Shown piece after piece: positions 34,140 through 48,860 of a stretch of 64,000 nucleotides of DNA. Each line of letters begins with the position of its first letter. The stretch's first letter is position 1. The notes under the pieces were generated by a model. It searched no databases, had not been told where the DNA came from, and worked only from the letters and a program-made list of their open reading frames with translations. Source of the stretch: Escherichia coli (GTDB taxonomy: Bacteria; Pseudomonadota; Gammaproteobacteria; Enterobacterales; Enterobacteriaceae); assembly GCF_030384885.1 (NCBI RefSeq), contig NZ_CP128613.1; one strand, 5' to 3'. A program made the translations under genes and the position numbers.

Positions 34140-34183
34140 TGGTGGGCTGGCGGGAGTTGAACCCGCGTCCGAAATTCCTACAT
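34140..34183. repeat. attL: direct repeat of ssrA 3' end (1-nt deletion relative to attR copy)
   Basis: TGGTGG-GCTGGCGGGAGTTGAACCCGCGTCCGAAATTCCTACAT matches 48498-48542 except for one missing A. Confidence 0.85.
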
Positions 34184-34310
34184 ACTAATAATATATCTTT
34201 AAAATCAAAATATTCTATTATTTATCAATGTATTATGTTTATGTGGTGTTAAGGGGTTTATATGGGTTTTAGTTCTCTGCCGCCAAAATGCCGCCAAAAA
34301 AATTGAATGG

Positions 34311-34336
34311 TAAAACGCCAGTTCGTTGAACTGGCG
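34311..34336 (-). terminator. Rho-independent terminator of the dcd-like/thyX-like operon
   Basis: Perfect hairpin CGCCAGTTC-G-TTGAACTGGCG followed (on minus strand) by TTTT, 10 nt after the thyX-like stop. Confidence 0.55.
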
Positions 34337-34346
34337 AGATCTTGTC

Positions 34347-35114
34347 TTATTGTTTTATTATCTTAACGTGCGCCGTTCCTCCATTGACTTTTTCGAAATC
34401 TTGGAACAAGGCAGGGGCATCTTGAGTTACAATATCGTAAAGTTTTTCTGAAACTGTTCTCATTTCATAGTCACCCTGTATTGCTCCTCTCATTTCGAAG
34501 AAGTGTCGAATTGCGCGAGCATTTGCTGTGACGATTATTTTTGTCTCGGTTGCATTAGGCAATATAGAGCGAGAAGCGCTTCTTAAGGCCCGCATTTTTT
34601 CTTTTTTGTTCTCATACGATTGGTTTTCACGGATTTTTTTCAAGGATTGCTTATAAAAATCCAGACTACTTTCAATATGTTGGCACCATGACTTAAACAA
34701 TTCTGGGTCATTTTTTACTTCTATAGGGGCTACGAATTCAGCATCGGATTCATCATGATACTGTTGGGATAACTGGCTATATGAAAAACCAGCTCTATGC
34801 CGAACTAGCTGGTGTGTAAATGCACGAGATACCCCAGTAATTAAAAAGGTCCAGTTCAAATGTTCTAAGACACTTTCATGCCCTTGAATAATTAAATTGT
34901 TGATATATTGACTTGTAGTCCGTGGAGACTGCTTATCCTCTCCAAAAGACATATAACATAGCCTGCCAGCGGCCTCTACCAGAAGCTCAGCTTCGGTCGC
35001 CTGCCCTTTGCGAACCCATTGCAATGATGATGTGTTTAAAAAATCATCAAAAACATTACTTTCAAATGAAGGGTGTGATATGCATTTTACTGATAAATCA
35101 GAGATTTTTATCAT
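34347..35114 (-). CDS. ThyX-family (flavin-dependent thymidylate synthase, Thy1 domain) homolog
   Basis: 255 aa; signature RHR-x8-S (LVRHRAGFSYSQLSQQY), upstream GHESVLEH and downstream TANARAIRHFF blocks align with canonical ThyX (GHETPFEH ... WFRHRIASYNELSGRY ... TVNARSLMNF). Low GC. Confidence 0.75.
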   Translation of the reverse strand: MIKISDLSVKCISHPSFESNVFDDFLNTSSLQWVRKGQATEAELLVEAAGRLCYMSFGEDKQSPRTTSQYINNLIIQGHESVLEHLNWTFLITGVSRAFTHQLVRHRAGFSYSQLSQQYHDESDAEFVAPIEVKNDPELFKSWCQHIESSLDFYKQSLKKIRENQSYENKKEKMRALRSASRSILPNATETKIIVTANARAIRHFFEMRGAIQGDYEMRTVSEKLYDIVTQDAPALFQDFEKVNGGTAHVKIIKQ

Positions 35115-35116
35115 TT

Positions 35117-35902
35117 TTACTCCCGTATAGCTTTTGGGGTGCTTACTTTAGCATCAACCTTTGGTTCGTTTGATTTAGCATTTTTTAGTAATTCAACGGT
35201 GCTTTTTAGGCTATTTATTTCATTTTGTTGAACTTTTATTGTTAATTCAAGATCTTTTGTACTACTGACATTACTGGATACTATTTGAAATAAGAAAGGA
35301 ATTGCTAGGGTTATCAACGTTAGCATTAAGGCTGCTATCGCAATTATAAAGCCAGTTTTTTTCGCAATGATTTTATTGATTTCTTTCGGAAGTCGTTTAT
35401 CAAGTCCTGCAAAATCCTTTCCCATTCTAGAAAGTTGATCATCATCCAATTTATTTACGATTTTTCCTTGGTAACCTTTAGTCGGTATTATTGTTTTAAA
35501 TAATAACATTCGGGCTACTGCTGAATTTTGTGTCAATGAGAATGGTTCTTTTGACATATTTACAAGATATATTGAAATTATGCCATTATATCCAGGGTCA
35601 ATATGCCCTGGATTCGTCATGATAATTCCATTTTTTGATAGTGTGTTTCTTGGAAATATTACACCAGCTAAATTTTTTGCAAGTTGGAATTTTTCATTTA
35701 ACTCTAATATTACAGTTTCCCCTGGCATCAGGATATGGTTGTTACGTGTTTTTTTATTGTCTTGACAGTCTGGTATATGTATTGTTTTTACAGAGAGATC
35801 AATGCTTGCAGATTGAACTTTAAATGTTCCATTTAATACCGTTAATGGATCAAAAATGTTGCCTCGCTGAATTTCATCATTGATTTCTATTTCAGACAGC
35901 AT
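35117..35902 (-). CDS. dCTP deaminase/dUTPase-superfamily protein with C-terminal transmembrane helix and coiled-coil tail
   Basis: 261 aa; residues 1-150 align with E. coli Dcd (ASIDLSVKT / LMPGETVILEL / GHIDPGYNGIISIYLVNMSKEPFSLTQNSAVARMLL vs ATVDVRLGN / LHPGELALAV / [34 protein letters not shown]); C-terminal hydrophobic segment GFIIAIAALMLTLITLAIPFLF then K/E-rich tail. 2-bp gap to the thyX-like gene. Confidence 0.75.
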   Translation of the reverse strand: MLSEIEINDEIQRGNIFDPLTVLNGTFKVQSASIDLSVKTIHIPDCQDNKKTRNNHILMPGETVILELNEKFQLAKNLAGVIFPRNTLSKNGIIMTNPGHIDPGYNGIISIYLVNMSKEPFSLTQNSAVARMLLFKTIIPTKGYQGKIVNKLDDDQLSRMGKDFAGLDKRLPKEINKIIAKKTGFIIAIAALMLTLITLAIPFLFQIVSSNVSSTKDLELTIKVQQNEINSLKSTVELLKNAKSNEPKVDAKVSTPKAIRE

Positions 35903-35928
35903 ATCAAAATCCTATATTTGTAAAGTTA

Positions 35929-36942
35929 TTATAAATTAGCCAGAGGGTTTTTTATTACTGCATCTTCAAGATGCTCTGGGGAAAAATGTGCATAAATCAT
36001 AGTCATTTTTATATCAGAGTGGCCTAAAATATCTCGTAAAACCAAAATATTACCACCATTCATCATAAAATGGCTGGCGAATGTATGGCGCAGAACGTGA
36101 GTGCATTGGCCCTCTGGTAACTCAATGTCAGCTCGCTTTACTGCTCGTTCAAAGGCTTTTCTGCAAGGAGTGAATAACTTCCCTCTGTTCTTAGGGAGTT
36201 CGTCATACAGATCCTGAGATATCGGCACGGTACGGTTTTTCTTGCCCTTAGTCTTGGTATAGGTGATCCGGTATTTCGATAACTGATGGCCCTGCAGATT
36301 TTCGGCTTCACTCCAGCGCGCGCCGGTGGCCAGGCATATTTTTGTAATTAAAAGTAGACTGGGGCTTTGAGAATCAGCACAGGCATCCAGCAGACGTTTA
36401 ATTTCTTCCGGGGTCAGGAACGACAGTTCACCCTCAGCAATTTTAAATGTTGGCAGCCCGGCAAGCGGATTGGGGGCTGACCAGTGGCCCAACTTTTTCA
36501 GTGTGCCAAAAACAGATGATAGGTTGCGCTGTTCAAGGTTTACAGTGCGGGGCTTAACGGGCGACATAAGCGTGCCCTCTTCATTTCGCACTTCACCTTT
36601 TAGCCGCGCTTCTCGGTATTTAGTAAAATCACCGGCTGTCAGCTCTGAGGCGATGGGATCGCCTAGACCATTACAGATAATTCTAAGTTTCGCCATGAGG
36701 CGCTTGGGGTCTGCGAGTGTTTGACCATACAGGGAATACCACTGCTCAATTAATTCTGATAGGTGTCGCCGATCTTCCTTTTCCCCCAGCCATGGCTTTT
36801 TGTTCACTTCTTCCATTGTGAAGCTTTCAAAAGCAATGGCTTCGCCTTTCGTAGCAAATTGCTTACGCACGCGCTTGCCATTGCGTCCATGGGGATAGCA
36901 CTCGCACAACCATTTACCGTTTGGCTGTTTTCTGACAGTCAT
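35929..36942 (-). CDS. int: Tyrosine recombinase, P2/186-type prophage integrase
   Basis: 337 aa; N-terminal GRNGKRVRKQFATKGEAIAFE, catalytic-region motifs (LATGARWSEA, HVLRHTFASHF, MIYAHF) typical of P2-like integrases. Confidence 0.85.
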   Translation of the reverse strand: MTVRKQPNGKWLCECYPHGRNGKRVRKQFATKGEAIAFESFTMEEVNKKPWLGEKEDRRHLSELIEQWYSLYGQTLADPKRLMAKLRIICNGLGDPIASELTAGDFTKYREARLKGEVRNEEGTLMSPVKPRTVNLEQRNLSSVFGTLKKLGHWSAPNPLAGLPTFKIAEGELSFLTPEEIKRLLDACADSQSPSLLLITKICLATGARWSEAENLQGHQLSKYRITYTKTKGKKNRTVPISQDLYDELPKNRGKLFTPCRKAFERAVKRADIELPEGQCTHVLRHTFASHFMMNGGNILVLRDILGHSDIKMTMIYAHFSPEHLEDAVIKNPLANL

Positions 36943-36944
36943 GT

Positions 36945-37577
36945 TTAGATACTCTTTATTACTTTGACTGCACGCCCAATAACTTCCACATCATCAGTAG
37001 AGCACTCGAAAGACGCTTCATCTTGATTTACTACAATCTTATTGCCGGGAATCCGCATGATTTTTGCAACAATAATCATTCCATCAATATTGATAAGCCA
37101 GAATCCATTGCTGACCTGTTTAATTGATTTATCGATGAGATAACAATTAGTAGGGGTTTCTAAGAACATCAATTCTTCATAATCTGCAGGTAATATGCTG
37201 TGGTCTAGGAAAATCTCTTCATCAATACTGAGTTGTCCATTCTCCAGGGTTCCTTTAGGAATAGCTGGAGTTATGAGTTTGGATAACGGTTTAATTGCTT
37301 GTTTGTTCTCATTATGAGAACTTTTCTCAGGCTCAGCTCCTCCTTTCATGCTTCCCTGTCCTGTAGCTAACCAAAGCAACGAAACACCGGTTTCTAGTGC
37401 GCACTGAATTATCCAGTCAGCAGGAAAGCTGTCACGTAACACTCTGTTTGCCATAGTGCTTTTTGAGACATTCAGGTGCTCGCTTAATGCCTGCTTAGTT
37501 GTGAATCCATAAGCCTCAAGCAGCCTTTCAATAGCTGCCTTACCTCCCGTATCGGAACCCATTCTGATGTTTAACAT
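36945..37577 (-). CDS. Phage CI-like repressor (186 CI-type HTH)
   Basis: 210 aa; HTH region LSEHLNVSKSTMANRVL; immediately upstream of and overlapping int start (cI-int operon), divergent from apl/cox-like gene. Confidence 0.7.
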   Translation of the reverse strand: MLNIRMGSDTGGKAAIERLLEAYGFTTKQALSEHLNVSKSTMANRVLRDSFPADWIIQCALETGVSLLWLATGQGSMKGGAEPEKSSHNENKQAIKPLSKLITPAIPKGTLENGQLSIDEEIFLDHSILPADYEELMFLETPTNCYLIDKSIKQVSNGFWLINIDGMIIVAKIMRIPGNKIVVNQDEASFECSTDDVEVIGRAVKVIKSI

Positions 37578-39845: not shown

Positions 39846-40072
39846 TGGCTGATGCAATGGATCTCGTACAGCAGCGCGTTGAAGAAGAACGCCAACGCCA
39901 TATCCGTGCTGCCCGTGCCAAAACGCCGGGCGTGTCCCGCGTGCTTTGCATTGAGTGTGAAGCGCCAATTCCGCCAGCACGCCGCCGTGCCATTCCGGGT
40001 GTGCAGCTTTGCATTACCTGTCAGGAAATCGCAGAGCTGAAAGGCAAACATTACAACGGAGGTGCTGTATGA
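39845..40072 (+). CDS. TraR/DksA-family C4 zinc-finger protein
   Basis: 75 aa with CIECEAPI...CITCQ four-Cys motif. Confidence 0.7.
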   Translation: MADAMDLVQQRVEEERQRHIRAARAKTPGVSRVLCIECEAPIPPARRRAIPGVQLCITCQEIAELKGKHYNGGAV

Positions 40073-40926
40073 GCACCATCCTGAAATGGGCGGGAAATAA
40101 AACTGCCATAATGTCCGAACTGAAAAAACATCTTCCTGCTGGCCCGCGACTGGTTGAACCTTTCGCGGGTTCCTGTGCTGTGATGATGGAGACGGATTAT
40201 CCCAGCTATCTGGTTGCGGATATTAATCCTGATTTAATCAACCTCTATAAAAAGGTTGCCGCTGATTGTGAATCGTTTATATCTCGCGCCAGAGTTTTAT
40301 TTGAGATCGCAAACAGGGAGGTGGCTTATTACAACATAAGGCAGGAGTTTAATTACTCAACTGAAATTACTGATTTCATGAAAGCGGTATATTTCCTGTA
40401 TCTCAATCGTCACGGTTACCGTGGTTTATGTCGCTATAACAAGAGCGGGCATTTCAACATTCCCTACGGTAATTATAAAAATCCGTATTTCCCTGAAAAA
40501 GAAATTCGCGCATTTGCAGAAAAGGCCCAGCGAGCAACGTTTATCTGCGCCAGCTTTGATGAAACGCTGGCGATGTTGAAGGCGGGGGATGTGGTGTATT
40601 GCGATCCGCCGTATGACGGTACGTTTTCCGGCTATCACACTGACGGCTTCACTGAAGATGACCAGTATCACCTGGCATCTGTTCTTGAACATCGGTCATC
40701 AGAAGGACATCCGGTCATTGTTTCTAACAGTGACACATCCCTGATCCGTTCGCTGTATCGCAATTTTACTCACCACTACATCAAGGCAAAACGCAGCATC
40801 GGTGTGGCAGCTGGCGAGGGTAAATCAGCAACAGAAATCATTGCTGTTTCCGGGCCGCGCTGCTGGGTGGGATTTGATTATTCGCGTGGCGTGGATAGTT
40901 CTGCCGTGTACGGAGTACGTGCATGA
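40069..40926 (+). CDS. DNA adenine methyltransferase (Dam-like, D12 class N6-adenine MTase)
   Basis: Protein [25 protein letters not shown]...EPFAGSCAV... and DPPY catalytic motif (VYCDPPYDG). Confidence 0.85.
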
Positions 40927-43337
40927 GTCATGCCGATATGAACAACTGCTGCGGCTTTAACGAAGCTGCCGCATCGTTCTCATGGAACAGCCCGAAAAAG
41001 GCCATTAACCCTTATCTGGACCCGGCGGAAGTTGCGCCGGTTTCTGCGCTTTCAAACCTGATCACTCTGTACGCTACTGATAACGAGCAGGAACAACTGC
41101 GCCGCGAGGCACTGAGTGATCAGGTCTGGGAGCGTTATTTCTTTAATGAATCCCGTGATCCTGTCCAACGCGAAATGGAGCAGGATAAGCTCATTAGCCG
41201 GGCAAAGATGGCGCATGAGCAGCAGCGTTTTAATCCAGACATGGTCATTCTGACTGACGTCAACGCCCAGCCTTCCCATATCAGCAAGCCGCTGATGCAA
41301 CGTATTGAATATTTCAGCAGCCTGGGCAGGCCAAAGGCTTATTCCCGCTATTTGCGTGAGACGATTAAGCCATGTCTGGAACGACTGGAGCATGTACGCG
41401 ACAGCCAGCTATCTGCATCTTTTCGTTTTATGGCAAGCCATGAAGGGCTGGACGGTCTGCTGATCCTGCCTGAAATGAGTCAGGATCAGGTGAAACGCCT
41501 GTCTACCCTTGTCGCTGCGCATATGAGCATGTGTCTTGATGCCGCTTGTGGTGATTTGTACGCCTCCGATGATGTTAAGCCAGAAGAAATCCGCAAGACA
41601 TGGGAAAAGGTGGCTGCAGAAACCCTGCGACTGGATGTCATACCGCCTGCGTTTGAGCAACTCCGCCGGAAAAGAAACCGCCGCAAACCTGTGCCTTATG
41701 AACTCATTCCGGGTTCGCTGGCGCGTATGCTGTGCGCCGACTGGTGGTATCGGAAATTATGGAAGATACGTTGCGAATGGCGGGAAGAGCAGTTGCGTGC
41801 TGTCTGCCTGGTCAGCAAAAAAGCATCTCCCTATGTCAGCTATGAAGCCGTGATGCATAAACGTGAGCAGCGCCGTAAGTCGCTGGAGTTTTTCCGTTCT
41901 CATGAACTGGTGAACGAAGACGGCGACACGCTGAACATGGAGGATGTGGTAAACACCAGCAGCAGCAACCCGGCGCATCGCCGCAACGAGATGATGGCCT
42001 GTGTTAAAGGCCTAGAGCTTATCGCGGAAATGCGTGGTGACTGCGCCGTTTTCTACACCATCACCTGTCCGTCACGTTTCCATTCCACGCTAAATAACGG
42101 CAGGCCAAACCCGACCTGGACCAACGCGACAGTAAGACAAAGCAGCGATTATCTGGTCGGCATGTTTGCTGCATTTCGTAAGGCTATGCACAAAGCCGGG
42201 TTGCGCTGGTATGGCGTGCGGGTGGCTGAGCCGCATCATGACGGCACAGTTCACTGGCACCTGTTGTGTTTCATGCGCAAAAAAGACCGCCGCGCCATTA
42301 CTGCATTGTTGCGTAAGTTTGCCATCCGTGAAGACCGCGAGGAGCTGGGCAATAACACGGGGCCACGCTTTAAGTCTGAGCTGATAAACCCGCGCAAAGG
42401 AACGCCGACAAGCTACATTGCGAAATATATCAGTAAGAATATTGACGGGCGTGGTCTGGCTGGCGAGATCAGTAAGGAAACGGGTAAATCCCTGCGTGAT
42501 AACGCTGAATACGTTAATGCCTGGGCGTCTCTGCATCGTGTTCAGCAATTCCGCTTCTTTGGCATTCCGGGGCGTCAGGCTTACCGTGAACTGCGATTGC
42601 TGGCTGGTCAGGCGGCAAGGCAACAGGGTGACAAAAAAGCAGGTGCGCCGGTACTGGATAACCCGCGCCTTGATGCCATCCTGGCTGCTGCTGATGCTGG
42701 TTGTTTTGCCTCCTACATCATGAAGCAGGGCGGCGTACTGGTTCCCCGCAAATATCACCTCATCAGAACCGCTTATGAAATCAACGAAGAGCCGACCGCC
42801 TATGGCGATCACGGTATTCGTATTTATGGCATCTGGTCACCCATTGCAGAGGGCAAGATCTGCACTCATGCAGTGAAGTGGAAAATGGTTCGTAAGGCCG
42901 TTGACGTTCAGGAGGCGGCAGCCGACCAGGGCGCTTGCGCCCCTTGGACTCGTGGCAATAACTGTCCCCTTGCTGAAAATTTGAACCAACAGGAGAAAGA
43001 TAAATCAGCTGATGGGGACACCAGAACGGACATTACCCGCATGGATGACAAGGAGTTGCACGATTACCTGCACAGTATGAGCAAAAAAGAGCGCCGGGAA
43101 CTGGCTGCAAGGTTACGCCAGGTGAAACCGAAACGGCGTAAAGACTACAAACAGCGAATTACAGACCATCAGCGACAGCAGCTCGTCTATGAACTGAAGT
43201 CCAGGGGATTTGATGGCAGTGAGAAAGAAGTCGATTTGCTCCTTCGCGGTGGCAGTATTCCGTCAGGAGCAGGCCTGCGTATTTTCTATCGGAACCAGCG
43301 TCTGAAGGAAGATGATAAGTGGCGGAACCTGTATTAA
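40923..43337 (+). CDS. Phage replication initiation protein (186/P2 gene A-type endonuclease)
   Basis: 804-aa protein following Dam in early operon; size and position match P2/186 protein A. Confidence 0.7.
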
Positions 43338-45038: not shown

Positions 45039-47375
45039 ATGATTGAAGAGGTAGTTATTGACAAAGTAGGCTCATATAATGGCCCTACTCAGCTTTTACA
45101 TGGGCTTTCTAAATTTAACTATTTATATGGAGCTAATGGTGCAGGTAAAACAACTATAAGTAAAATTATTAATGACCCTGAACAATATCCAACATGTCCG
45201 ATTAAATGGAAAAATAATATATCTTTAATAAGCTACGTATATAATAAAGATTTTGTTGAAAGAAATTTTAGTCAAGATAAAATTAAAGGTGTATTTACCC
45301 TTGGTAGCGATCTTAAGGAGGATGAAGAGAAATTAATATCTCTTGAAGAAGAAAAAAATAAGCTAATAGAATCTATTATAGCAAAGGAAAAGCTAATAGA
45401 TGGTGGTGATAATATATTAGGCGTTGTTAAACAAATCGAAGACCATGAAAAATCTTTTAAAGATTCATGTTGGAAGCAAAAAGTAAAACATGATAATGTG
45501 TTCTCAAAGGCTTTTGAGGGATTAAGGAATAGTAGTGAAAAATTTAAAGCTAGAGTGTTGGCTGAGTATGAAAATAACACATCAGAAGTTTGCTCAATAG
45601 CAGAGCTAATTGAGAAAGCAAAAATTGTTTTTTCTACTGAATTGACATCACATGTATCAATTACAATTCCATCCTTCAATGGGATAGATGATATTTTGAG
45701 TAGGGAGATTTGGAGTGAGCGTATTCTAGGGAAAAAAGACGTTAGTGTTTCAGACTTAATTACAATGCTCAATAACAGTGATTGGGTTAAGGAAGGTTTA
45801 ACATATTTCAGTAAATCTAATCCCAAGTGCCCATTCTGCCAGCAGGATGTAAATGATAATATATTTGATAATCTATCATCATATTTTGATAAAACATATG
45901 AGTTAAAAAAAAGAGAAATCGATGCATTGGTTTTACAATATGAACATCAACTTAATAATATCTTGCAGGCGATAGATGATATAAGGGCGATTAAATCTCC
46001 ATTCATAAATTATGAAGTGTTTGAGGATAAGGCTAAGATAGTATTATCTGAATTAAACAAGAATTTTGAATTGGCAAAAAATAAACGCAATTTTTTAAGT
46101 GAATCAGTTCATTTTAGTGACTTAAGTGAAGTTGTTGATGATTTTATTTCTTTTTTGAATGATTCAAATCTATTGATAGATAATAATAACAAAATACACA
46201 GTAATAGAAAGGTAGAGGCTAGTAATCTTTCTAATCAGATATGGGCATATATCGTAAAGGTGGAGTTAAAGTCTGAAATAACTTCTTACCGTAGCGAATC
46301 TGATAAATTTAATAGGAAGTTACAAGGGCTTAAATCTGGGTTAGAGGAAGACAAAAAGAAGTTAATGTTAAATGCTTCGGCTATTGAGGCAATTGAGTCT
46401 AATAAAACCAGTACTCTTCCAACTATTACAAAAATTAACAAGATTCTGGATTCTTATGGCTTCAAAAATTTTTACTTAAAACCCTCCGAAGATAAAAAGC
46501 ATTATATGATAGTGAGAGATAGTGGAGATAATGCTCGTACAACCCTTAGCGAGGGAGAAAAGACATTTATCACTTTTTTGTATTTTTATAGCCTTGTTAG
46601 AGGGAGTGATAATGCATCAGGTGTTTTAGATGATCGTGTTGTAGTATTTGATGATCCAATTTCAAGTTTAGATAGTGATATTCTGTTTATTGTAAGTTCG
46701 TTGATTAAAGATTTAATGGAGGATGTTCGTAAGGATGAAGGAAATATTAAGCAAATTATATTCCTTACACATAATATTTATTTTCATAAAGAGTTGACTT
46801 TTAATACTAAAAGATCCGGTAATCAAGCAATGAAAGAGGAGACTTTTTGGATTGTAAGGAAAAAAGGGAAGGTCTCATATCTTGAAAAGTGCGAATCAAA
46901 CCCAATAAAAACGTCTTATGATTTGCTCTGGTGCGAATTGAGAAGAACAGATATTAATAATAATACTATACAAAATACAATGCGAAGGATTTTGGAGAAT
47001 TACTTTAAGATATTAGGTGGGATGGATATTAGGAAGCTTGAATGTCATTTTTATGGTGATGAAAAAATCATATTTAAATCTTTAGTGTCATGGATTAATG
47101 ATGGTTCTCATTTTGCAGGTGATGATCTTTATATGAATTTAGATACGGAGTCTGTGCAAAAATATTTAATTGTTTTTCAGAAGATATTTGAGTGTAGTGA
47201 GCATACTGCCCATTACAAAATGATGATGGGTGAGTTTTATAGACCGTTAAATGAGTCACTTCATCTACAAGATGAGTTTGATATTGATGATAGTGCGAAT
47301 GATGAGTATGCTTCGTCAAAAATTGAGATAGAAGATGGAATAAACACATCTCTACATAGTAATACATATTTGTAA
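45039..47375 (+). CDS. PrrC/RloC-like ABC-type ATPase (AAA_13-like) with CxxC motif and C-terminal putative HEPN-like domain
   Basis: 778 aa; Walker A GANGAGKTT, Walker B VVVFDDPISSLD, H-loop-like FLTHN, long K/E-rich coiled-coil insert containing CPFC; C-terminal domain with RKLECH (R-x4-H) and RRILE (R-x3-E) motifs; very low GC. Confidence 0.65.
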   Translation: MIEEVVIDKVGSYNGPTQLLHGLSKFNYLYGANGAGKTTISKIINDPEQYPTCPIKWKNNISLISYVYNKDFVERNFSQDKIKGVFTLGSDLKEDEEKLISLEEEKNKLIESIIAKEKLIDGGDNILGVVKQIEDHEKSFKDSCWKQKVKHDNVFSKAFEGLRNSSEKFKARVLAEYENNTSEVCSIAELIEKAKIVFSTELTSHVSITIPSFNGIDDILSREIWSERILGKKDVSVSDLITMLNNSDWVKEGLTYFSKSNPKCPFCQQDVNDNIFDNLSSYFDKTYELKKREIDALVLQYEHQLNNILQAIDDIRAIKSPFINYEVFEDKAKIVLSELNKNFELAKNKRNFLSESVHFSDLSEVVDDFISFLNDSNLLIDNNNKIHSNRKVEASNLSNQIWAYIVKVELKSEITSYRSESDKFNRKLQGLKSGLEEDKKKLMLNASAIEAIESNKTSTLPTITKINKILDSYGFKNFYLKPSEDKKHYMIVRDSGDNARTTLSEGEKTFITFLYFYSLVRGSDNASGVLDDRVVVFDDPISSLDSDILFIVSSLIKDLMEDVRKDEGNIKQIIFLTHNIYFHKELTFNTKRSGNQAMKEETFWIVRKKGKVSYLEKCESNPIKTSYDLLWCELRRTDINNNTIQNTMRRILENYFKILGGMDIRKLECHFYGDEKIIFKSLVSWINDGSHFAGDDLYMNLDTESVQKYLIVFQKIFECSEHTAHYKMMMGEFYRPLNESLHLQDEFDIDDSANDEYASSKIEIEDGINTSLHSNTYL

Positions 47376-48497: not shown

Positions 48498-48542
48498 TGG
48501 TGGAGCTGGCGGGAGTTGAACCCGCGTCCGAAATTCCTACAT
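48498..48542. repeat. attR: ssrA 3'-terminal att core
   Basis: TGGTGGAGCTGGCGGGAGTTGAACCCGCGTCCGAAATTCCTACAT, repeated at 34140-34183. Confidence 0.85.
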
Positions 48543-48860
48543 CCTCGGTACTACATGCTTAGTCAGTCTTTACATTCGCTTGCCAGCTGCGGACGGACAC
48601 GCCACTAACAAACTAGCCTGATTAAGTTTTAACGCTTCAACCCCAGGCAGGGCTTCCACGCGATCTCTTTTGGGTTTGACCTCTCTTGATCCCCGTCCTA
48701 AGAGCGGAGGCTAGGGAGAGAGGGCTCTAAGCAGGTTATTAAGCTGCTAAAGCGTAGTTTTCGTCGTTTGCGACTATTTTTTGCGGCTTTTTACGAGGCC
48801 AACCGCCCCTCGGCATGCACCTTGGGTTTCGCAAATCCCGTCGAATCCAGAATCAGCCCC
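48498..48860 (-). ncRNA. ssrA: tmRNA (SsrA)
   Basis: Reverse complement matches E. coli tmRNA from 5' GGGGCTGATTCTGGATTCGACGGG to 3' ...GGGTTCAACTCCCGCCAGCTCCACCA, including the tag-coding region. Confidence 0.95.

Follow-up and report, generated by a model that had tools for sequence, protein, structure and literature searches.

A two-gene cassette in an Escherichia coli prophage raises the question of why proteins related to enzymes of nucleotide metabolism are encoded at the integrase end of an element that has lost nearly all of its structural genes. The cassette lies within a 64,000-nucleotide stretch of the E. coli contig NZ_CP128613.1, hereafter called the window. It consists of a gene for a membrane-anchored protein with the fold of deoxycytidine triphosphate (dCTP) deaminase (Dcd) and dUTPase, which we name DcdL, and a gene for a member of the ThyX thymidylate synthase family, which we name ThyX-SQQY. 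The cassette is a mobile and self-contained module of two genes; in this prophage it is lysogeny-side cargo, located at the end between the integrase gene (int) and the left attachment site (attL). From its location and its neighbours in other genomes we infer, with a probability of roughly 0.6, that DcdL and ThyX-SQQY form an anti-phage defence module.

The two genes are placed as follows.

35117-35902, minus strand: DcdL, open reading frame (ORF) of 261 amino acids
34347-35114, minus strand: ThyX-SQQY, ORF of 255 amino acids

Both ORFs have exactly the coordinates proposed in an earlier, sequence-only reading of this DNA. The stop codon TAA of DcdL is followed by AA and then by the ATG of ThyX-SQQY, which leaves a gap of 2 bp, and the ribosome-binding site of ThyX-SQQY (GGGAG) is located within the 3' end of the DcdL gene. 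The GC content is 0.32-0.40 over positions 34250-35999, compared with 0.47-0.52 in the flanks. The ORFs, the GC profile and the attachment-site repeat described below confirm the sequence-only reading in its account of two co-oriented, low-GC genes separated by 2 bp between int and attL.

Pairing and distribution of the cassette

A survey of co-occurrence shows that the pair is conserved as a module and is found in defence islands. In the 24 loci with enough downstream sequence, ThyX-SQQY is the partner of DcdL, with L026 as the sole exception. The ThyX-SQQY gene is directly downstream of DcdL, or within 2 kb of it in three Acidobacterial loci, and across the loci examined the two genes often overlap by 4 bp. 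The reciprocal check, starting from ThyX-SQQY, finds DcdL directly upstream with a 4-bp overlap in all three sampled cases (Klebsiella, a marine element and Pseudomonas). Paired loci are present in Citrobacter, P. aeruginosa, Shewanella, Enterobacter, Kosakonia, Pseudomonas, Alteromonas and Neiella, as well as in Terriglobia/Acidobacteria, Mycobacterium, Verrucomicrobia and Bradyrhizobium. The loci checked span at least seven phyla. At the exceptional locus (L026, 9995-13402, from a Myxococcota metagenome-assembled genome), DcdL is followed by genes for a HAD-family phosphatase, a Vsr endonuclease and a Dcm-type cytosine methyltransferase.

An Acidobacterial variant comprises four genes, encoding DcdL, ThyX, a Nudix-WGR protein and an all-alpha NTP-pyrophosphatase-like protein. 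Judged by their predicted families, the two additional proteins stay within the theme of (d)NTP/(d)NMP chemistry.

Among 5426 complete E. coli genomes, one has the cassette. Escherichia, Enterobacter, Serratia and Kosakonia share pairs with an identity of 90% or more, and Klebsiella carries a 79%-identical ThyX together with its own DcdL. All enterobacterial pairs examined are found in a string of the order cI-int-DcdL-ThyX at the end of a 186-like prophage. In IMG/VR, eight P2-like proviruses on contigs of up to 36 kb show the order int, DcdL, ThyX, with DcdL alleles that are 50-100% identical. The cassette is also carried by an integrative and conjugative element (L002), and elsewhere it forms islets of just the two genes, flanked by housekeeping genes that include gcvP, asd and thiC. 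The sequence-only reading had considered that such pairs might occur only in intact phages, as replication genes. Instead, searches of 50,697 phage records with blastn and tblastn do not find the cassette: no full-length DcdL is present in these records, and their best ThyX is only 38% identical. A tblastn search of 72,556 plasmid records does not find the cassette either.

A small integrative element from a marine metagenome (L033, 4850-11024) shows a further arrangement, in which a P4-type integrase is followed by DcdL, ThyX, an unknown protein of 325 amino acids, two small ORFs and a gpA-like replication protein. DcdL directly follows the integrase here too, although the P4-type integrase family is unrelated to the 186 type. 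The locus is flanked by Lamassu and by a PLD-helicase type IV restriction enzyme. For this marine metagenomic locus, the protein is listed in 117 blocks of the collection.

Fold and active sites of DcdL and ThyX-SQQY

DcdL is composed of the following parts.

Residues 1-150: beta-barrel
Residues 154-163: linker helix
Residues about 185-208: transmembrane (TM) helix
From there to about residue 243: helical coiled-coil tail

Residues 52-137 match the Pfam families DCD (PF22769, 1.7e-13) and dUTPase (PF00692, 2.1e-12), and residues 2-241 match PHROG 1663. The AlphaFold2 (AF2) model, with a mean confidence score (pLDDT) of 82, consists of a confident beta-barrel (1-150), a short helix (154-163) and a single continuous helix (167-243). 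The best PDB matches found by Foldseek are bifunctional dCTP deaminase-dUTPases (4xjc, 7.6e-12; 2qxx and 2qlp), followed by E. coli Dcd, and with a target-normalised TM-score of 0.70 against 4xjc the protein has the Dcd/dUTPase beta-barrel fold. DcdL does not reach the NCBIfam cut-offs for dCTP_deam (TIGR02274; 56.2 bits, cut-off 92.8) or for trimeric dUTPase (TIGR00576; 40.7 bits, cut-off 102.55). Its dUTPase motif 3 reads IDPGY instead of IDxDY, the motif with the catalytic Asp, and in place of a GFGS-type motif 5 the C-terminus holds the TM helix and the coiled coil.

Residues 186-204 are strongly hydrophobic (mean Kyte-Doolittle value 2.65) and are followed by a helical tail of 57 amino acids. 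The hydropathy profile and the AF2 model thus agree on the C-terminal TM helix and coiled-coil tail that had been read from the sequence. Four Lys/Arg residues are located just before the hydrophobic window and one just after it, and this excess on the N-terminal side suggests a topology with a cytoplasmic Dcd domain and a periplasmic 57-residue tail.

To define the family, 1.84 billion representative proteins were searched with a profile (E<=1e-30). The search yields 505 clusters at 50% identity, with essentially full-length matches of about 250-310 amino acids. A TM-like segment is present in 142 of 150 members, with a median of 56 amino acids after it; typical members have one TM helix and a helical tail of about 55 amino acids, and are richer in Lys/Arg on the N-terminal side of the TM helix.

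Residue columns were compared across 151 members. The column of the catalytic E138 of E. coli Dcd is Tyr112 in DcdL, and in the family it contains Thr (123), Cys (14), Tyr (6), Ala (4), Ser (2) and Val (2), with no Glu or Asp. Mutational studies have targeted this Glu, as PDB titles show: they name the E. coli Dcd variants E138A and E138D and, for the M. jannaschii enzyme, E145A/Q. Of the Arg residues that bind the triphosphate in E. coli Dcd, the equivalent of R126 is deleted in all 151 members, and the R110 column is Pro in 139 (Arg85 in the DcdL of the window). The H121 column is Thr in 150. In contrast, the family retains E. coli D34, H125, D128 and N141, plus an aromatic residue at W131 and Y171, and DcdL keeps the sugar/base-pocket residues D35, T96, H100, D102, Y105, N115 and Y144. 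The family is therefore, as far as its residues tell, large and coherent, with a preserved nucleotide pocket that lacks the deaminase Glu and the canonical deaminase chemistry. With Tyr112 at the catalytic position and neither Glu nor Asp there in 151 relatives, dCTP deamination by DcdL appears unlikely. The Dcd domain of the sequence-only reading thus stands as a fold, by Pfam, AF2 and Foldseek, but not as a canonical active site (Tyr112 for the Glu; 56.2 bits against the required 92.8).

ThyX-SQQY matches Pfam Thy1 (PF02511) over the full-length domain with 3.2e-48, and scores 154.8 bits against NCBIfam thyX (TIGR02170), above the cut-off of 87.9. Together with the DCD and dUTPase matches of DcdL, this result supports both of the family assignments made from the sequence. 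The nearest solved structure is M. tuberculosis (Mtb) ThyX (3gwc, 7e-42). Residues of ThyX-SQQY were mapped onto the numbering of the Mtb and T. maritima (Tm) enzymes, whose contacts with flavin adenine dinucleotide (FAD) and deoxyuridine monophosphate (dUMP), including residues retained in ThyX-SQQY, have been listed (PMC6514825). The RHR motif (R105-H106-R107) is conserved, as are S81, R97, S116, Y119, R182, R200 and R209; the RHR...S signature and the FAD-binding residues (Mtb R95-H96-R97, S71 and R190) are thereby present.

Three features set the protein apart. There is a one-residue insertion after RHR. Mtb Arg107 (Tm Arg90), a conserved dUMP-site Arg beside the catalytic Tyr (PMC6514825, PMC11940539), is Gln118 in ThyX-SQQY, and it is Gln in 138 of 138 sequences (18 partners and the 120 best homologs); the set of dUMP-site Arg residues (Mtb R87, R95, R107 and R199; PMC6514825) is thus incomplete through the replacement of R107. 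Mtb His203 is Gly214, a change likewise found in all 138 sequences. The signature RHRxG..SQLSQQY, together with xGD, is present in 18 of 18 partner ThyX proteins from diverse phyla and in 120 of 120 best database homologs, which indicates a separate ThyX subfamily with an altered active site. By its residues, ThyX-SQQY is a genuine member of the ThyX family and belongs to a distinct subfamily. What had been read as a clear ThyX is correct as to family (Thy1 match, 154.8 bits, RHR...S) and needs amending as to the active site, where the Arg is Gln in the whole subfamily.

A reading of ThyX-SQQY as a deoxycytidine monophosphate (dCMP) methylase was set aside, because the Arg that contacts O4 (Mtb R199) is retained as R209. 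Its retention would favour a uracil-type substrate.

Defence neighbours, the int-attL slot and the host prophage

Matches to PADLOC models place known and candidate defence genes next to the cassette in several genomes. The marine locus L033 has Lamassu LmuA/B/C (1e-119 to 1e-154) and a type IV methyl-directed restriction enzyme, and L003 has Menshen NsnA/B (1e-115/1e-104). Neighbours at other loci are a PDC-M54A/nSTAND protein (L004), a methyl-directed type II restriction enzyme (L018, 4e-150), PDC-S41 (L020, 2e-134), MzaA (L024, 6e-67), PDC-M16A (L023) and a type II restriction enzyme (L017).

A second line of evidence comes from sister prophages. Related int-cI genes are present in 191 of 5426 E. 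coli genomes, of which ten were inspected (L050-L059). The slot between int and attL, equivalent to positions 34187-35928 of the window, carries different cargo in almost all ten. In NCTC9038 it holds an anti-phage dCTP deaminase (NF041025, 425 bits, cut-off 400; PADLOC dCTPase, 1.9e-145), in ETEC1731 a shorter relative (3.4e-107), and in strain WEC GapS1 (NF047931, 428 bits, cut-off 320). Cargo turnover is high in the int-attL slot of 186-like E. coli prophages, a hotspot in which a variable locus lies beside a conserved anchor gene and sister elements hold known defence genes. This slot resembles the prophage and satellite defence hotspots described by Rousset et al. 2022 (PMC9122126), where, in P2-like prophages, high-turnover cargo beside a conserved anchor includes known and unknown anti-phage genes; in the int-attL slot, too, a small variable cargo locus is located next to an anchor gene. 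Neither the int-attL slot of 186-like prophages nor the DcdL/ThyX cassette is mentioned in that work (PMC9122126). The conserved pairing, the defence islands and a slot shared with validated anti-phage genes support the proposal of the sequence-only reading that the genes are a cargo operon with a defence-type role.

Other sister prophages carry cargo of unknown function in the same slot, namely single proteins of 222, 343, 352 and 408 amino acids and two-gene sets of 375+397 and 403+300 amino acids. These proteins have no PADLOC or NCBIfam match and are candidates for further defence genes.

The surroundings of the cassette in the window are given by the following features.

35929-36942, minus strand: tyrosine integrase of 186/P2 type (ORF, tyrosine recombinase models and RefSeq annotation of a near-identical locus)
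36945-37577, minus strand: CI-type repressor (ORF; annotated as phage repressor protein CI; Phage_CI_repr Pfam match in sister loci)
34312-34336, minus strand: terminator-like hairpin 3' of thyX, read from the sequence, with an 8-bp stem, a 5-nt loop and TTTT
34146-34186, no strand: attL, a 41-nt copy of the ssrA 3' end
48498-48860, minus strand: ssrA, the transfer-messenger RNA gene (ARAGORN), whose 3' end (48505-48545) is the right attachment site (attR) and the right boundary of the prophage

The repressor gene is the first of the co-oriented string cI-int-DcdL-ThyX, all on the minus strand. The integrase, which ends 26 bp upstream of DcdL, is the conserved anchor gene directly upstream of the cassette. 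The 41-nt direct repeat (34146-34186 and 48505-48545) has copies that are 98% identical and represent attL and attR; with the second copy at the ssrA 3' end, the prophage measures 14.4 kb. It is a defective 186/P2-like element at ssrA that retains cI, int, cII, a Dam-like methylase, the replication nickase gpA and a portal fragment. Nearly all structural genes are gone, with the portal fragment as the sole survivor, in agreement with the defective prophage seen in the sequence-only reading.

The hairpin after thyX (CGCCAGTT/AACTGGCG, 34336-34316) has a GC-rich stem followed by TTTT. It falls below the threshold of a consensus terminator scan and is not called there. The terminator attributed to the operon therefore keeps its 8-bp hairpin and TTTT but not the support of the scan, and is plausible from the sequence.

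The prophage contains other genes of interest. A 778-residue AAA-type ATPase (45039-47375, plus strand) matches the PADLOC candidate defence family PDC-S06 with 1.5e-266, so that the decayed prophage holds a second candidate defence gene. It sits between gpA and the portal remnant, the classical position of the P2 old/tin hotspot. What has survived the decay of this prophage is immunity, integration and candidate defence cargo. Positions 40009-43337 (plus strand) encode a Dam-like orphan DNA adenine methyltransferase (PADLOC oMTase, 3e-111) and then gpA. In the window gpA is apparently full-length (PHROG 91, 7e-290), whereas in TUM12355 it is annotated as truncated; near-identical cassettes thus reside in differently decayed prophages. 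Abutting attL is a 1551-residue autotransporter ORF (29324-33979, plus strand), which corresponds to a YpjA/EhaD adhesin-like autotransporter annotated at the same position in sister strains. The left flank differs in TUM12355, where another integrase island carries a recombinase, two ParB-family genes and a type I restriction-modification system.

A probable defence role, its alternatives and known systems

If the cassette is a defence module, its parts may work as a sensor and effector. In a lysogen, DcdL and ThyX-SQQY would be co-transcribed with cI-int. The substrate of ThyX-SQQY would be dUMP or a similar pyrimidine deoxynucleoside monophosphate. DcdL would not be a deaminase; it may be a membrane-tethered trimer that binds a pyrimidine deoxynucleotide, possibly with retained pyrophosphatase activity. 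During infection it would pass nucleotide status on to a membrane output, and either phage replication would be blocked or the infection would be abortive. This mechanism, in which ThyX specifically works with a membrane-tethered DcdL coupling nucleotide status to the membrane, is tentative, and we consider it possible but doubtful. A bolder form of it seems to us improbable: ThyX-SQQY could be a neo-functionalised flavin/folate enzyme making a non-canonical, C5-modified pyrimidine deoxynucleotide, for which the dead DcdL pocket would be the receptor, gating a trimeric membrane effector. Candidate products would be 5-hydroxymethyl-dUMP, formed if the exocyclic-methylene intermediate were released to water, or a methylated nucleotide other than deoxythymidine monophosphate (dTMP). 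Thymidylate-synthase chemistry would then feed an immune signalling or poisoning pathway unrelated to cyclase-based systems.

Several points weigh against the defence reading and its mechanism. The defence role is drawn solely from genomic location and neighbours, and five islets between housekeeping genes (L007, L015, L016, L022 and L037) have no defence neighbour. DcdL and ThyX-SQQY match no PADLOC v2 model and no NCBIfam model labelled antiphage. The topology and oligomeric state of DcdL and the co-transcription with int are predictions. Loss of Glu138 excludes canonical deamination, yet it may be compatible with a pyrophosphatase activity of DcdL; Arg85, the counterpart of E. coli R110 that is absent in most relatives, is present in the DcdL of the window, and the C-terminal arm (D163, F164 and R170) could supply missing phosphate contacts. 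We also know of no precedent for a Dcd fold or a ThyX in such a sensor/effector arrangement.

Among the alternatives, the simplest chemistry would be that of an active dCTP deaminase or bifunctional Dcd-Dut coupled to a normal ThyX, which would drain dCTP into dTMP, starving the phage of dCTP and raising deoxythymidine triphosphate (dTTP). Corruption of nucleotide pools is a validated principle of defence (PMC13276650; 10.1101/2021.03.31.437871), the best structural matches of DcdL are bifunctional Dcd-Dut enzymes (4xjc and 2qxx), ThyX-SQQY scores above the NCBI equivalog cut-off, and the Acidobacterial Nudix and all-alpha NTP-pyrophosphatase-like genes would fit dNTP hydrolysis. Depletion of dCTP by deamination, which the sequence-only reading had put forward, is nevertheless weakened by the active site, where 151 of 151 members lack both the Glu and R126, and 139 have Pro for R110. 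DcdL is also below the dCTP_deam cut-off, and the scheme gives no account of the universal TM helix and tail or of the invariant change from Arg to Gln in ThyX; we regard it as unlikely. A non-immune role would be lysogenic conversion or addiction, with the pair serving as a ThyA-independent back-up of thymidylate synthesis under antifolate or thymine stress, or stabilising its element in the manner of a toxin-antitoxin system. ThyX-SQQY is a bona fide family member with largely intact FAD/dUMP residues, several islets are isolated from defence genes, and carrier elements such as prophages and integrative and conjugative elements profit from stabilisation. However, enterobacterial hosts use ThyA, and a metabolic route needs neither a membrane-anchored, Glu-less Dcd nor an altered ThyX site. 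The distribution is sporadic and rare, defence neighbours recur, and the slot is common to anti-phage dCTP deaminase and GapS1; a role of this kind is decidedly unlikely.

The remaining alternatives concern the phage life cycle. PHROGs assign both proteins to families of 'DNA, RNA and nucleotide metabolism', and many lytic phages encode ThyX and dUTPase/Dcd proteins, as would be expected of auxiliary genes for the lytic DNA replication of the prophage itself. The pair is located in the cI-int string beside the attachment site, outside the early replication operon; none of the 50,697 phage records has a full-length DcdL or a ThyX that exceeds 38% identity; and the pair also occurs outside any phage and is retained in a remnant no longer able to replicate lytically. 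Taken together, these points make this explanation very improbable. DcdL might also act alone in superinfection exclusion, its trimeric TM/coiled-coil tail blocking DNA entry at the envelope, with ThyX incidental. A single-pass protein with a predicted periplasmic coiled coil, encoded by a prophage within its lysogeny operon, would suit such a task, but the conserved residues of the cytoplasmic nucleotide pocket would go unexplained, as would the near-obligate ThyX partner across phyla and in non-phage contexts. We give this proposal very little credence.

The reading of the cassette as a defence module can be compared with known systems. With the anti-phage dCTP deaminase (Tal et al. 2022; DcdV/AvcD) it shares carriage by prophages or islands, a theme of pyrimidine deoxynucleotides and the same int-attL slot (NCTC9038 and ETEC1731). 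That enzyme is the soluble product of a single gene, in which a P-loop kinase is joined to a Zn-dependent deaminase of the CDA fold with the motif HAE...PCxxC (10.1101/2021.03.31.437871), and the fold and architecture of DcdL are unrelated to it. NF041025 and PADLOC dCTPase do not match DcdL or ThyX-SQQY, while the positive controls from the sister prophages match strongly, so that the likeness to anti-phage dCTP deaminase drawn in the sequence-only reading is one of name only. DcdL shares its beta-barrel fold with Dcd and bifunctional Dcd-Dut enzymes (B. halodurans 4xjc, M. tuberculosis 2qxx and E. coli 1xs1), and differs from them in the absence of the catalytic Glu and R126, in Thr for H121, and in the added TM helix and coiled coil. 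Similarly, ThyX-SQQY resembles the ThyX enzymes of M. tuberculosis (3gwc) and T. maritima (1o26) in its full-length Thy1 domain, RHR, Ser, Tyr lid and FAD/dUMP Arg/Ser residues; unlike them, it has the insertion after RHR, the Arg-to-Gln and His203-to-Gly changes, and DcdL as a partner, and it occurs in hosts that rely on ThyA.

DS-4 of DefensePredictor, validated as a defence system in E. coli, contains an enzyme of the thymidylate synthase type along with others that modify nucleotides (PMC13092281). It is composed of a ThyA-type thymidylate synthase (PF00303), an adenylate/dNMP kinase, a 5-hmdU DNA kinase-like protein, a TIR protein and a further gene, and it demonstrates that immunity can make use of C5-pyrimidine chemistry (PMC13092281). 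Table S11 of DefensePredictor contains 'FAD-dependent thymidylate synthase' and 'dCTP deaminase', as names only. Unlike the cassette, DS-4 has no ThyX, Dcd fold or TM protein. We rejected DS-4, the sole lead from the literature, as the same system, since the cassette comprises just two genes and its thymidylate synthase belongs to Thy1 instead of PF00303.

In CBASS Cap15 and Pycsar PycTM, a ligand-binding cytoplasmic domain is fused to TM helices and is encoded beside the gene of a nucleotide-converting enzyme. DcdL may be likened to them by a purely architectural analogy; unlike these systems, the cassette has no cyclase or known signal. To our knowledge, the Dcd fold and ThyX are unprecedented in nucleotide-activated TM effector systems.

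PADLOC v2 gives no match to DcdL, ThyX-SQQY, int or cI, and the pair is therefore none of the PD-, PDC-, Gao, Millman or Rousset systems of that release. In the searchable literature on these enzyme families in defence and in prophages, the DcdL/ThyX pair is undescribed, in line with the sequence-only reading, which had recognised no described system in it. The cassette is a candidate for a nucleotide-centred anti-phage defence carried by mobile genetic elements and uncharacterised so far.

Regardless of mechanism, the int-attL slot is a source of new candidates, since it holds two anti-phage genes that have been validated and six or more types of cargo that are unknown. The invariant Arg-to-Gln change poses a testable question, namely what a ThyX active site can make, and if the product of ThyX-SQQY or the output of DcdL proves unprecedented, the cassette could be categorically new. 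If a defence role is confirmed, bacterial immunity would gain two folds not validated there before, that of a ThyX flavoenzyme and that of a Dcd/dUTPase trimer anchored in the membrane, from a large family of about 505 clusters at 50% identity in many phyla. The cassette would then constitute a second, mechanistically different anti-phage use of pyrimidine-deoxynucleotide chemistry.

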